From assembly GCA_963705915.1 (NCBI GenBank), contig OY970126.1:296306-360305 (forward strand): 64,000 bases of DNA, read 5' to 3'. A program made the position numbers and the translations under genes. Shown here piece after piece: positions 14,864 through 45,081 of this stretch. This DNA is from an uncultured bacterium (lineage in GTDB: Bacteria; Patescibacteriota; Minisyncoccia; UBA6257; 2-01-FULL-56-20). The notes under the pieces were generated by a model, which worked only from the letters and a program-made list of their open reading frames with translations, searched no databases and was not told the DNA's origin. How positions within the stretch are numbered: the stretch's first letter is position 1; the number at the start of each line of letters is the position of its first letter.

Positions 14864-14932
14864 GATTTTAATGATATTTTTCTTGCGGCGTCTATAATTC
14901 TATAATACACTATACGCGGTCGTTCGTTTCAT

Positions 14933-15003
14933 TGGGGGGTCGTCTAACGGTAGGACATGGGACTTTGAATCCCAGAATAAAGGTCCGACTCCTTTCCCCC
15001 CAG
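14933..15003 (+). tRNA. tRNA-Gln (anticodon UUG); unusual T-loop
   Basis: Hand-folded: acceptor UGGGGGG/CCCCCCA (U1-A72), discriminator G73, D-stem GUC/GAC, anticodon stem UGGGA/UCCCA with loop CUUUGAA, T-stem AAAGG/CCUUU. The T-loop UCCGACU is non-canonical (C55). No encoded CCA. Confidence 0.6.
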
Positions 15004-15036
15004 CTCTCTTGTGGATCGACTCGACTGGGAATTGAG

Positions 15037-39389: not shown

Positions 39390-39405
39390 CGCGTCGGTTA
39401 GGCTG

Positions 39406-39451
39406 TGGACACAGGGAGAATCGAACTCCCGCCCCCGCAATGCGAATGCGG
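39406..39451 (-). repeat. partial copy of tRNA-Ala 3' portion (anticodon stem to 3' end, 46 nt, 2 mismatches)
   Basis: Direct comparison with 39481..39551. Confidence 0.8.
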
Positions 39452-39455
39452 CCAA

Positions 39456-39473
39456 GCAGTTTCGTTTGTTTAC
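39456..39473. repeat. 18-nt arm (gcagtttcgtttgtttac) of a perfect inverted repeat bracketing tRNA-Ala
   Basis: Exact reverse complement of 39567..39584. Confidence 0.85.
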
Positions 39474-39480
39474 CTTAATG

Positions 39481-39551
39481 TGGACCCAGGGAGAATCGAA
39501 CTCCCGCCCCCGCAATGCGAATGCGGTGTAATACCACTTTACTATGGGCCC
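39481..39551 (-). tRNA. tRNA-Ala (anticodon CGC)
   Basis: Hand-folded: acceptor GGGCCCA/UGGGUCC with G3:U70, D-stem GUAA/UUAC, anticodon stem CCGCA/UGCGG with loop UUCGCAU, T-stem GGGAG/CUCCC with loop UUCGAUU, discriminator A. Confidence 0.85.
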
Positions 39552-39566
39552 ATGGATGAGAACATA

Positions 39567-39584
39567 GTAAACAAACGAAACTGC
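39567..39584. repeat. 18-nt arm (gtaaacaaacgaaactgc) of the inverted repeat bracketing tRNA-Ala
   Basis: Exact reverse complement of 39456..39473. Confidence 0.85.
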
Positions 39585-39600
39585 GTTTTCAATTGTTAAC

Positions 39601-39638
39601 CGCGCCTCTTAGGCGCGAGCCACTTTACTATGGGCCCA
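39601..39638 (-). repeat. partial copy of tRNA-Ala 5' end (19 nt), followed on the minus strand by a 6-bp GC hairpin (cgcgcc/ggcgcg)
   Basis: 39620..39638 is identical to the 5' end of the intact tRNA. The hairpin is at 39601..39617. Confidence 0.75.
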
Positions 39639-44484: not shown

Positions 44485-44562
44485 TCATTTTATTTTAGCA
44501 TGGATAGGACGTTGAATGGATTGCGTAAAACCTCGTTTTCTTTTATTATATAATGCAATCAA

Positions 44563-44619
44563 GCCCCTATAGCTCAGCCCGGTAGAGCAGCTCCCTTTAT
44601 GAGAGCCAAGGGCTCTCAT
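44563..44619 (+). repeat. partial copy of tRNA-Lys 5' 36 nt (35/36 identical) followed by a perfect 9-bp hairpin (ATGAGAGCC-AAG-GGCTCTCAT)
   Basis: 44563..44598 versus 44672..44707. Hairpin at 44599..44619. Confidence 0.8.
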
Positions 44620-44636
44620 CGGCTGGTTCGTTCGTT

Positions 44637-44655
44637 GAAAACAAAAGGGCAAATC
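44637..44655. repeat. 19-nt arm (gaaaacaaaagggcaaatc) of an inverted repeat bracketing tRNA-Lys
   Basis: Complement of 44759..44777 with a single G.U-compatible mismatch. Confidence 0.8.
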
Positions 44656-44671
44656 AAATTATGAGCAGTGT

Positions 44672-44745
44672 GCCCCTATAGCTCAGCCTGGTAGAGCAGC
44701 TCCCTTTTAAGGAGATGGTCCCAGGTTCAAATCCTGGTGGGGGCA
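44672..44745 (+). tRNA. tRNA-Lys (anticodon UUU)
   Basis: Hand-folded: acceptor GCCCCUA/UGGGGGC, D-stem GCUC/GAGC, anticodon stem GCUCC/GGAGA (27:43 G.A) with loop CUUUUAA, variable UGGUC, T-stem CCAGG/CCUGG with loop UUCAAAU, discriminator A. Confidence 0.85.
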
Positions 44746-44758
44746 CACTGCCCGGAAT

Positions 44759-44808
44759 GATTTGTCCTTTTGTTTTCACCTCACTGCCAGCCGTAAGGAG
44801 ATGGTCCC
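44759..44808 (+). repeat. second arm of the tRNA-Lys-flanking inverted repeat (44759..44777) followed by a 15-nt internal tRNA-Lys fragment (44794..44808)
   Basis: gatttgtccttttgttttc; then taaggagatggtccc, identical to tRNA positions ~36-50. Confidence 0.75.
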
Positions 44809-44817
44809 TGCCAGATG

Positions 44818-45081
44818 TCACTTCGCCCTCACGGTCACATGAGTCTTGCCCCACGAAATTTTGTTCCAAATGCGCTCGTGGATAAAATAGGCAACGGTGG
44901 TGTAAATGTTACTCACGATGACGAAGCCGACGGCAATATCGATTTGGTGAGTGAATAAATAGACGAACGTGAAGTCTAAGATGACGATAATAACCCGGTA
45001 GCTCAGCGCTTTTACAACCGAGCGCCATTCGCTGTCTTCGTGGATGTGTGCTTCTTGCTCGCCGTGGAGATTATGATCCAT
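44818..45081 (-). CDS. DUF2061-like small membrane protein
   Basis: ORF track ORF from 45405, but only the C-terminal 87 aa from the internal Met (MDHNLHGEQ...RSVVKALSYRVIIVILDFTFVYLF...FIHERIWNKISWG) look protein-like. They resemble DUF2061. Confidence 0.55.
   Translation of the reverse strand: MDHNLHGEQEAHIHEDSEWRSVVKALSYRVIIVILDFTFVYLFTHQIDIAVGFVIVSNIYTTVAYFIHERIWNKISWGKTHVTVRAK

Follow-up and report, generated by a model that had tools for sequence, protein, structure and literature searches.

Two tRNA genes in a Patescibacteria contig, probably split by nuclease-less cassettes that carry a replacement tRNA

We analyzed a stretch of 64,000 nucleotides (hereafter the window; positions 296,306 to 360,305 of contig OY970126.1, assembly GCA_963705915.1) from an uncultured bacterium of the Patescibacteriota. 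Two of its tRNA genes, encoding tRNA-Lys(UUU) and tRNA-Ala(CGC), each lie between incomplete copies of the same tRNA, together with a hairpin and a pair of complementary arms. We consider it probable that both loci are resident tRNA genes that were split by replacement cassettes, i.e., by inserts that bring along an intact tRNA of the same kind, and that these cassettes are nuclease-less members of a selfish family. Comparison with related genomes shows that the cassette was inserted into a gene already resident there and, at tRNA-Ala, that the arms are constrained in their pairing, not in their sequence. The architecture recurs across Patescibacteria, where it often includes a gene for a small GIY-YIG nuclease. 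By analogy with those loci, the window copies would be miniature or decayed relatives of GIY-YIG cassettes that have no nuclease.

Organization of the tRNA-Lys and tRNA-Ala loci

The tRNA-Lys locus (44563-44808, plus strand) begins with a 5' stub of the resident gene (44563-44598), which corresponds to nucleotides (nt) 1-36 of the tRNA with 35 of 36 positions identical, and which ends within the anticodon, at canonical position 35/36. A hairpin with nine perfect pairs, ATGAGAGCC-AAG-GGCTCTCAT, marks the 5' breakpoint (44599-44619). Adjoining it is CGGCTGG (44620-44626), the 5' strand of the outermost helix in the predicted fold; the corresponding 3' strand, CCAGCCG (44787-44793), directly adjoins the 3' stub. 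Enclosed by this helix are a 21-nt upstream arm (44636-44656), the intact inner tRNA-Lys(UUU) that would be the replacement copy (44672-44746; found by ARAGORN, and by Rfam with 67.7 bits) and a 21-nt downstream arm (44758-44778). Leader and trailer of the inner tRNA form a helix that extends the acceptor stem (44658-44676 with 44740-44758), according to both an inverted-repeat alignment and the predicted fold. The 3' stub (44794-44808) corresponds to tRNA nt 37-51, with 15 of 15 positions identical. The remainder of the old gene is gone, and the stop codon of a DUF2061 gene lies at 44818. An initial reading of this locus that used the sequence only had reported the two partial copies, the hairpin, the arms and the intact tRNA, and all of them were found where it had placed them; the outermost helix and the leader/trailer helix are additional. 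Its claim that the arms are complementary also stood up to re-alignment: 20 of the 21 pairs are Watson-Crick, and the remaining one is a G.U on the tRNA strand.

The insert between the two outer stubs is 195 nt long and has no open reading frame (ORF) of note. The stubs abut exactly at gene nt 36|37 (canonical 35/36), and there is no target-site duplication. The ends of the insert are the hairpin on the left and the CCAGCCG helix strand on the right, and the 18-21-nt arms of both loci are subterminal. In the predicted fold, the insert pairs from end to end (7 + 21 + ~9 base pairs (bp), continuing into the acceptor stem; z = -7.2), and the anticodon stem of the outer tRNA-Lys re-forms across the insert. 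The internal loops between the helices of this long structure are not complementary. The outer copy lacks nt 52-76; since it ends at nt 51, it cannot encode a tRNA. An ORF of 21 codons that starts at an ATG in the hairpin was considered as a nuclease remnant and rejected, as it is too short and its similarity is not convincing.

The sequence-only reading had pointed to a second, independent locus with the same order of elements, and we do find this order at tRNA-Ala (39404-39637, minus strand). Its 5' stub (39620-39637) comprises tRNA nt 1-18, with 18 of 18 positions identical, and ends in the D-loop. It is followed by the breakpoint hairpin CGCGCCT-AAG-AGGCGCG (39601-39617), whose AAG loop is shared with the Lys hairpin, by an 18-nt upstream arm (39567-39584), by the intact inner tRNA-Ala(CGC) (39480-39551; ARAGORN and Rfam), by an 18-nt downstream arm that is complementary to the upstream arm at 18 of 18 positions (39456-39473), and by a 3' stub that runs from nt 26 to the end of the tRNA with 47 of 48 positions identical (39404-39451). 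The arms are predicted to form an 18-bp helix around the inner tRNA. The outer copy lacks nt 19-25, and the insert is thus located at 18/26. A scan of viral contigs for the junction between the Ala stub and its hairpin gave no match. The only other tRNA that ARAGORN and Rfam identify in the window is tRNA-Gln (14933-15004, plus strand), which, as had been observed, lacks the bracket: it has neither copies nor arms.

Such arrangements go well past anything that chance would produce. At the Lys locus, local-alignment scores exceed the maximum obtained with shuffled flanks for the 5' copy (67 versus 19), the 3' copy (30 versus 21) and the arms (37 versus 18). The only two matches of the Lys arm in the window are its own pair (0.01 expected), and for the Ala arm, too, the 64 kb contain no match apart from the pair itself. 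No further copies of at least 11 nt of any of the three tRNAs were found elsewhere in the 64 kb, nor were additional copies of either locus's hairpins or arms found in the window, whose hairpin census contains no repeated family. An assembly artefact had been raised as a possible source of the duplications, but it can be excluded: independent Logan contigs are identical to the window over the left half of each locus, and the architecture in a related genome from a different metagenome, described below, agrees. The Logan contigs break inside the repeats at both loci, and short-read assemblies typically break within repeats.

A promoter scan identified promoter-like hexamers in both upstream arms that are correctly spaced for the inner tRNA. 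For Lys, these are TTGAAA (44635-44640) and AATTAT (44657-44662), separated by 16 nt and ending 10 nt before the tRNA. For Ala, they are TTGAAA (39592-39587) and TACTAT (39569-39564), separated by 17 nt and ending 13 nt before the tRNA. Because the hexamers overlap the upstream arm, a transcript that starts at the inner promoter would not include this arm; a transcript reading through from the promoter of the old gene would include it. The statement that the arm sequences of the two loci are unrelated to each other therefore needs to be qualified. Each arm is indeed unique in the window; however, both begin at or just after TTGAAAAC and coincide with the hexamers. By itself, TTGAAAAC is not enriched in the window (7 matches versus 4.35 expected). 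A terminator scan found none at the Lys and Ala hairpins, neither of which is followed by a U-tract. We rejected a switch in which the segment between the arms is an invertible promoter, since flipping it would abolish the -10 element of a tRNA that is essential and apparently present only once. A separate observation is that a similar short motif precedes two of the tRNAs: GGTTCGTTCGTT (44624-44635) before the Lys arm and GGTCGTTCGTTT (14919-14930) just before tRNA-Gln.

The breakpoints are relevant to two alternative explanations. Group I introns occur at the unusual 35/36 site in tRNA genes of Patescibacteria, those for tRNA-Asn and tRNA-Asp (PMC13011429). Given that tRNA-Lys is split exactly at this site in a member of the same phylum, the insert could be intron-like, in which case the outer gene would be functional. 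However, tRNA-Ala is split at 18/26 instead, and the insert holds a complete tRNA and no ribozyme core. There is no group I or group II signal even at E-values up to 5; both at the gathering threshold and at E<=5, Rfam reports tRNAs only, with no intron, ribozyme or riboswitch. Moreover, the outer exons are incomplete: since the outer Lys copy lacks nt 52-76 and the outer Ala copy lacks nt 19-25, splicing could give no tRNA, and the host would be rescued by replacement rather than by splicing. We consider an intron-like origin extremely improbable. We also rejected a tRNA that is split or permuted in the archaeal manner and contains a bulge-helix-bulge intron, given the bacterial gene content and the incomplete outer gene.

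The second explanation is that the loci are the attL and attR remnants of integrase islands that have since been deleted. Integrative elements are usually recognized by partial tRNA copies beside tRNA genes; they likewise target a tRNA gene, leave partial copies and restore a functional tRNA (PMC9897764). However, the insert is 100-fold smaller, at 195 nt, and neither an integrase nor a transposase was found among the neighbor genes in the window. The flanks are also of the wrong kind, as they are complementary, abutting halves, a 5' stub and a 3' stub around a complete gene, and not one segment duplicated at both ends. Whereas integrases typically use the 3' part of the tRNA, the breakpoints here are in the D-loop/position 26 and in the anticodon, and a 5' stub that ends in the D-loop or anticodon and is followed by a hairpin corresponds to no att layout. 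We regard this explanation as very improbable. In our preferred reading, the split genes contain replacement cassettes, and this reading can be evaluated using related genomes.

Occupied and empty sites in related genomes

The loci compared included 1.3 Mb from related metagenome-assembled genomes (MAGs) and L090-L169 (0.55 Mb). One relative, L090, was found by a metagenome scan that used the RNase HII of the window as the query, and is syntenic with the window. Its RNase HII is 64% identical to that of the window by tblastn and 69% identical by local alignment. Comparison with orthologous loci had been suggested as a check of the bracket, and L090 shows it in full at tRNA-Ala: a stub of nt 1-18, the conserved hairpin, an 18-nt arm, the inner tRNA, an arm that is complementary at 18 of 18 positions, and a stub that starts at nt 26. 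Like the hairpin, the promoter-like hexamers (TTTAAA-17-TACTAT in L090) are conserved between the two genomes.

At the syntenic place in L093 and L103, relatives that are about as distant as L090, tRNA-Ala is uninterrupted. The upstream flank of the L093 gene aligns with the flank of the L090 5' stub, continues to align through tRNA nt 1-18, and diverges exactly past GTGG. Since the flank of a plain gene thus runs into the L090 5' stub, the stubs represent the resident gene, and the block of hairpin, arm, tRNA and arm is the insert. In L090, compensated pairs in the acceptor stem and in the T stem set the inner tRNA-Ala apart from the stubs around it. These outer stubs are identical to the plain tRNA-Ala of L103. 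These differences fit an inner tRNA that came from another lineage.

A different state is seen at tRNA-Lys, where L090 has only the downstream half of the bracket, consisting of an unpaired arm remnant, CAGCCGC and a 14-nt version of the 3' stub. In L090, the uninterrupted 5' side of tRNA-Lys directly follows a promoter region (TTGAAT-17-TATGAT) that can be aligned with the window sequence upstream of the 5' stub. The aligned window sequence (44521-44549; TTGCGT, 17 nt, TATTAT) scores under the threshold of the promoter scan and, as read from its letters, would have been the promoter of the outer tRNA-Lys. The half-locus in L090 is the product expected of recombination between the 36-nt direct repeats, which would be a route of decay. 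In L094, tRNA-Lys also has a plain 5' side. The Ala site is therefore occupied in the window as well as in L090 and is empty in both L093 and L103, and the Lys site is full in the window and half-filled in L090.

Although dead, the Ala stubs of the window and L090 agree as closely as live tRNAs would (18 of 18 and 43 of 46 positions), and the window stubs share window-specific substitutions with the inner copy. These properties could result from gene conversion, from recent homing with co-conversion, or from selection on stubs as part of a mobile unit. Two observations upstream of tRNA-Ala genes concern possible earlier events. In L093 (10522-10650), there are three tandem copies of GGGCCGA together with GCATGGC-TTC-GCCATG, i.e., a short 5' stub and a hairpin. 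In L090 (10244-10269), GGGCCCATA overlaps a hairpin, CATATGACC-GAA-GGCCATATG. Given such short stub-hairpin units, apparently plain tRNA-Ala genes may be the innermost survivors of earlier events.

Of the 18 positions in the arms of the Ala bracket, 7 have changed between the window and L090. Each of these changes has its counterpart on the opposite arm, which leaves every pair intact, in a comparison that consists of two sequences only. The adjacent spacers are only about half identical. We take the free covariation of the arms to reflect nucleic-acid pairing, since a terminal repeat recognized by a protein would keep its sequence. This distinguishes the loci from miniature inverted-repeat transposable elements (MITEs), with which they share a short, non-coding insert that is bounded by inverted repeats and that is possibly a non-autonomous derivative of a protein-coding element. 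Unlike MITEs, they lack a target-site duplication and carry a functional tRNA, and their arms recur nowhere else in the 64 kb. In addition, arms that vary between copies and yet stay complementary imply a constraint on pairing rather than recognition by a transposase. The one mismatch of the Lys arms is the G.U pair in the sense strand, and the arms of related cassettes contain C.A mismatches.

This pairing is also what could be expected of a stalk for RNA processing that arose in situ, cleaved by an RNase III-type enzyme as around rRNAs, with the tRNA fragments as by-products of local duplication and no mobile history. The helix extending from end to end around the tRNA, the seven compensatory pairs, the G.U pair in the sense strand and the presence of an RNase III gene in the window would all be accommodated by such a stalk. 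It does not, however, account for exact gene halves that are continuous with the resident flank, for the different lineages of inner and outer tRNAs in L090 and elsewhere, or for the nested and nuclease-bearing versions described below. Furthermore, the upstream arm overlaps the promoter-like hexamers and may be untranscribed. We therefore think an in-situ origin unlikely. It is important to emphasize that what is disfavored is this origin by itself; a role in processing is compatible with the cassette reading.

A related proposal is that the brackets are neutral debris of local duplication, e.g., by replication slippage or template switching, with neither function nor mobility. The high identity of the window stubs to the adjacent tRNA (35/36 and 15/15 for Lys, 18/18 and 47/48 for Ala) and the restriction of the copies to each locus agree with this proposal. 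Debris would not, however, be expected to show the same compound design at two different tRNAs, nor to be kept in L090, whose RNase HII is 64-69% identical, with spacers that have diverged and arms that are perfectly compensated. It is also at odds with the compensated pairs by which the L090 inner copy differs from its stubs. Lastly, the non-complementary internal loops of the long helix imply that there was no recent inverted duplication. We judge this proposal improbable. Thus, the earlier argument that a shared order at two loci reflects a functional or mechanistic pattern and not chance is borne out by the recurrence in a relative with compensatory arm changes, by the empty sites, and by the layout found throughout Patescibacteria.

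Nuclease-bearing cassettes in other Patescibacteria

Elsewhere in the phylum, the general layout is an outer stub, a GC-rich palindrome or arm, an intact inner tRNA and a further outer stub, often together with a GIY-YIG gene. At tRNA-Ile in L026 and tRNA-Glu in L068, the topology resembles that of the window with the addition of a small internal ORF. Both ORFs encode single-domain GIY-YIG nucleases of ~80 amino acids (aa), for which the closest solved structure is the UPF0213 protein 1ZG2. Locus L068 is the closest nuclease-bearing analog of the window type: AT-rich arms of 22 nt surround the nuclease and tRNA-Glu, a GC-rich hairpin stands apart from them, and nt 26 is the first nucleotide of the 3' stub, as at the window's tRNA-Ala. 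No nuclease is encoded in L055, where the arms measure 13 nt and the 3' stub has diverged.

The tRNA-Thr(UGU) of L029 (18201-18460) is a double nest. One of its stubs terminates in the D-loop, another is divided at 35/36 and is matched by its 3' half, and the intact tRNA is central. The pairs of inverted repeats cross one another, and the arms are the two halves of a palindrome, CCTGCCTGCCGGCAGGCAGG, that is discussed below. The 35/36 split is common to tRNA-Lys of the window, tRNA-Thr of L029 and tRNA-Ile of L026. Inner and outer acceptors differ in L026, L068, L089, L055 and L029.

We found 13 small GIY-YIG ORFs in the fetched loci. Eleven of these are at most 69 nt from a tRNA, one is inside a 16S rRNA gene and one is intergenic. 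Inverted repeats of 17-22 nt bracket the ORF in the 16S rRNA gene, the intergenic ORF and the L068 cassette. The 16S rRNA case is in L019 (18040-18360), where the 18-nt inverted repeat is CCCAGCCCTACTTTTGAA / TTCAAAAGTAGAGCTGGG.

The six homologs of the L024 nuclease that were looked up all have a tRNA as their neighbor (Phe, Arg-CCU or Leu-CAA). Five of them share a layout with an outer 5' stub that has CCTGCCTGCCGGCAGGCAGG, or a 16-nt variant, in its D-loop and that ends at positions 35-38, followed by the ORF. The stop of the ORF in these five is at or inside a copy of the tRNA's 5' end, which belongs to the intact inner tRNA in the case of Phe and to a second palindrome-bearing stub in the case of Arg. 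At the Leu locus, the stop is 6 nt before the tRNA. Some loci of this type also have an outer 3' stub, with the palindrome in its T-loop. The sixth homolog (L087, 1895-2330) has its intact tRNA-Phe upstream of the ORF, and downstream has only a 3' stub with a T-loop hairpin and a duplicated terminator. Its contig is probably from Bacteroidota, and a neighboring gene has a Por secretion tail domain. The phenomenon may therefore extend past Patescibacteria.

GIY-YIG stop codons in tRNA-derived sequence are found in L024 (8163), L082 and L089 (2234), L088 (321), L083 (2240-2249) and L026 (13147-13149). This position recurs regularly; the codon is, for instance, a TAG within tRNA-Phe (GCCGCGGTAGCTCA) or a TAA within a remnant of a tRNA-Ile anticodon loop. 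With its stop codon inside tRNA sequence, the GIY-YIG ORF is fused to the tRNA copy that accompanies it.

The 20-nt perfect palindrome CCTGCCTGCCGGCAGGCAGG and its variants recur across distant Patescibacteria: L024 (7866-7885), L082 (1964-1979, 2334-2353), L083 (1952-1971, 2261-2280), L089 (1959-1978, 2515-2534), L045 (19585-19604, 19672-19687) and L055 (12265-12280). The palindrome is located in dead tRNA copies beside GIY-YIG genes, either in the D-loop or in the T-loop, in a 16S-23S spacer, where it stands alone, and in intergenic DNA. Because each arm around the intact tRNA of L029 is one half of it, a solo copy may represent a pair of arms with nothing in between.

Two further observations concern the duplications near such loci. 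In L089, a direct repeat of ~100 nt (1741-1840 / 2404-2500), made up of upstream flank and the palindrome-bearing outer part of tRNA-Phe, flanks the nuclease and inner tRNA; it looks like a long duplication that was made on insertion or by recombination. Nuclease-less partial copies are present downstream of intact tRNAs (Val-CAC, Tyr, Leu-GAG) in L034 (15448-15590), L021 (9027-9240), L033 (5593-5780) and L041 (915-1020), and some of these are interrupted by structured inserts of ~90 nt. In a survey of all fetched loci, about one third of 54 tRNAs had significant partial copies or arms. This fraction comes from a sample that is biased because eight of the loci had been fetched via the nuclease, and one of the flagged cases is a masking artefact.

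These loci could belong to an undescribed class of mobile elements, a broader proposal that we make tentatively and consider possible but short of probable. Its members would be units with covarying arms, or, when empty, a 20-nt palindrome resembling CCTGCCTGCCGGCAGGCAGG. They would invade tRNA and rRNA genes with a spare tRNA, a bare GIY-YIG nuclease or both, and would sometimes nest in each other. The stubs would move along as homology arms, and the ability of the unit to fold on itself would enable it to be copied using 15-50 nt of homology, even without a nuclease. The outcome would be that essential tRNA genes in these reduced genomes are serially replaced and horizontally exchanged.

A number of points weigh against regarding the window loci as members of a selfish family. 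GIY-YIG ORFs are absent from the window, from L090 and from all 0.55 Mb of L090-L169, and the mobility of a nuclease-less cassette appears to have no observed case. The link between the window and the GIY-YIG cassettes consists of shared architecture and breakpoints, not of sequence homology, and the hairpins and arms in the window are unlike the CCTGCCTGCCGGCAGGCAGG palindrome that is typical of those cassettes. The subtype with AT-rich arms was found in only two genomes, the window and L090. The window stubs are nearly identical to the inner tRNA, which local duplication or gene conversion would also yield. As to the function of the arms, the types of mismatch in other cassettes do not consistently favor wobble pairing in the sense RNA; and if the inner promoter were dominant, the upstream arm would not be transcribed and an RNA role for the arms would fail.

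Proposed mechanism and comparison with known systems

We propose that cassettes enter tRNA genes at junctions or loops, i.e., in the D-loop or at position 26, at anticodon position 35/36, or in the T-loop. The old gene would be destroyed on insertion, and the working tRNA would then come from the insert. Such an insertion, although fatal to a single-copy tRNA gene, would be tolerated because the insert supplies an intact tRNA, apparently with its own promoter. Spread from an occupied to an empty allele could take place by copying that is either triggered by a nuclease or based on recombination, with the stubs acting as homology arms. The complementary arms would close the insert into a single folded domain, which might be useful in one of two ways. 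They could fold in a read-through transcript, allowing the inner pre-tRNA to be released by an RNase III-type enzyme and insulating it from stubs that might mispair with it. Alternatively, they could fold in single-stranded DNA and compact the heterology during recombination.

The closest precedents for our proposal are free-standing homing cassettes. In organelles, GIY-YIG or LAGLIDADG ORFs that invade a gene supply a second copy of the gene end that they displace (e.g., Allomyces atp6). Such cassettes resemble the tRNA loci in that a selfish insert resides in a conserved gene, occupied and empty alleles occur among relatives, a substitute for the displaced part is carried, the pieces of the original are left as flanking pseudo-fragments, and, in the related Patescibacteria cassettes, a GIY-YIG nuclease is encoded. 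However, what is replaced here is not a gene end but a whole tRNA of 72-75 nt with promoter-like hexamers, and the window copies are nuclease-less and are bounded by inverted arms that covary freely. Moreover, the Patescibacteria nuclease is a bare, UPF0213-like catalytic domain of 80 aa with no DNA-binding domain. A free-standing homing endonuclease within a tRNA gene cluster is known from a phage, namely SegB of T4 (PMC2330249).

A second precedent comes from rRNA. In bacteria, intervening sequences of 23S rRNA are excised by RNase III. Among the candidate phyla radiation (CPR), GIY-YIG-encoding insertions that are not introns have been described in rRNA genes, with tRNA genes unmentioned (PMC11270868). 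These insertions have in common with the tRNA loci the phylum, the nuclease family, a location in a structural-RNA gene and, in L019, whose 16S rRNA gene has an insertion of this kind, the bracket of inverted repeats, which would pair into a helix once the host gene is transcribed. The target in our case is instead a tRNA gene, which does not tolerate fragmentation, so a spare tRNA is carried.

In the searchable literature, which is not complete, we found no description of a tRNA gene that is split by a cassette containing the complete same tRNA, with or without a nuclease. The loci look like an apparently little-described form of homing or selfish insertion with compensation for the disrupted gene, a mechanism whose components are already known. 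Selfish elements in essential genes are thought to need either self-splicing, as in introns and inteins, or restoration of a gene end, as with integrases. A third way would be a cassette with a whole spare copy of its target, which only genes as tiny as those of tRNAs make affordable. If our interpretation is correct, it would account for the partial tRNA copies that are common beside tRNA genes of Patescibacteria, and would imply horizontal replacement of tRNA genes in these minimal genomes. It would also warn annotators of stubs and of tRNA copies interrupted by palindromes, and would give the abundant GIY-YIG proteins of ~80 aa a concrete and testable role. The compensatory arms offer a clean case for distinguishing constraints on pairing in RNA from those in single-stranded DNA.

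The immediate neighbors of the two loci are housekeeping genes, encoding a Zn-ribbon protein, RNase HII, a DUF2061 protein, a GNAT protein, an M19 peptidase and SMC, and genes for SMC, RNase III, NusB, RNase HII, DnaJ and DnaK are near both loci. The L170 contig, which extends 2.6 kb past the window, has no tRNA in this extension. The closest relatives of the window's RNase HII are all from Patescibacteria MAGs (Parcubacteria/Paceibacterota-like). A final minor observation concerns tRNA-Ala, where the end of the upstream arm and the leader (39556-39571, minus strand; TTTACTATG) are complementary to tRNA nt 6-14 (CATAGTAAA; within 39538-39553, minus strand). The same CATAGTAAA is also contained in the 5' stub, and eight of its nine nucleotides are kept in L090. 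Either an alternative pairing or a chance match of the -10 box to the D-stem could be behind this complementarity.

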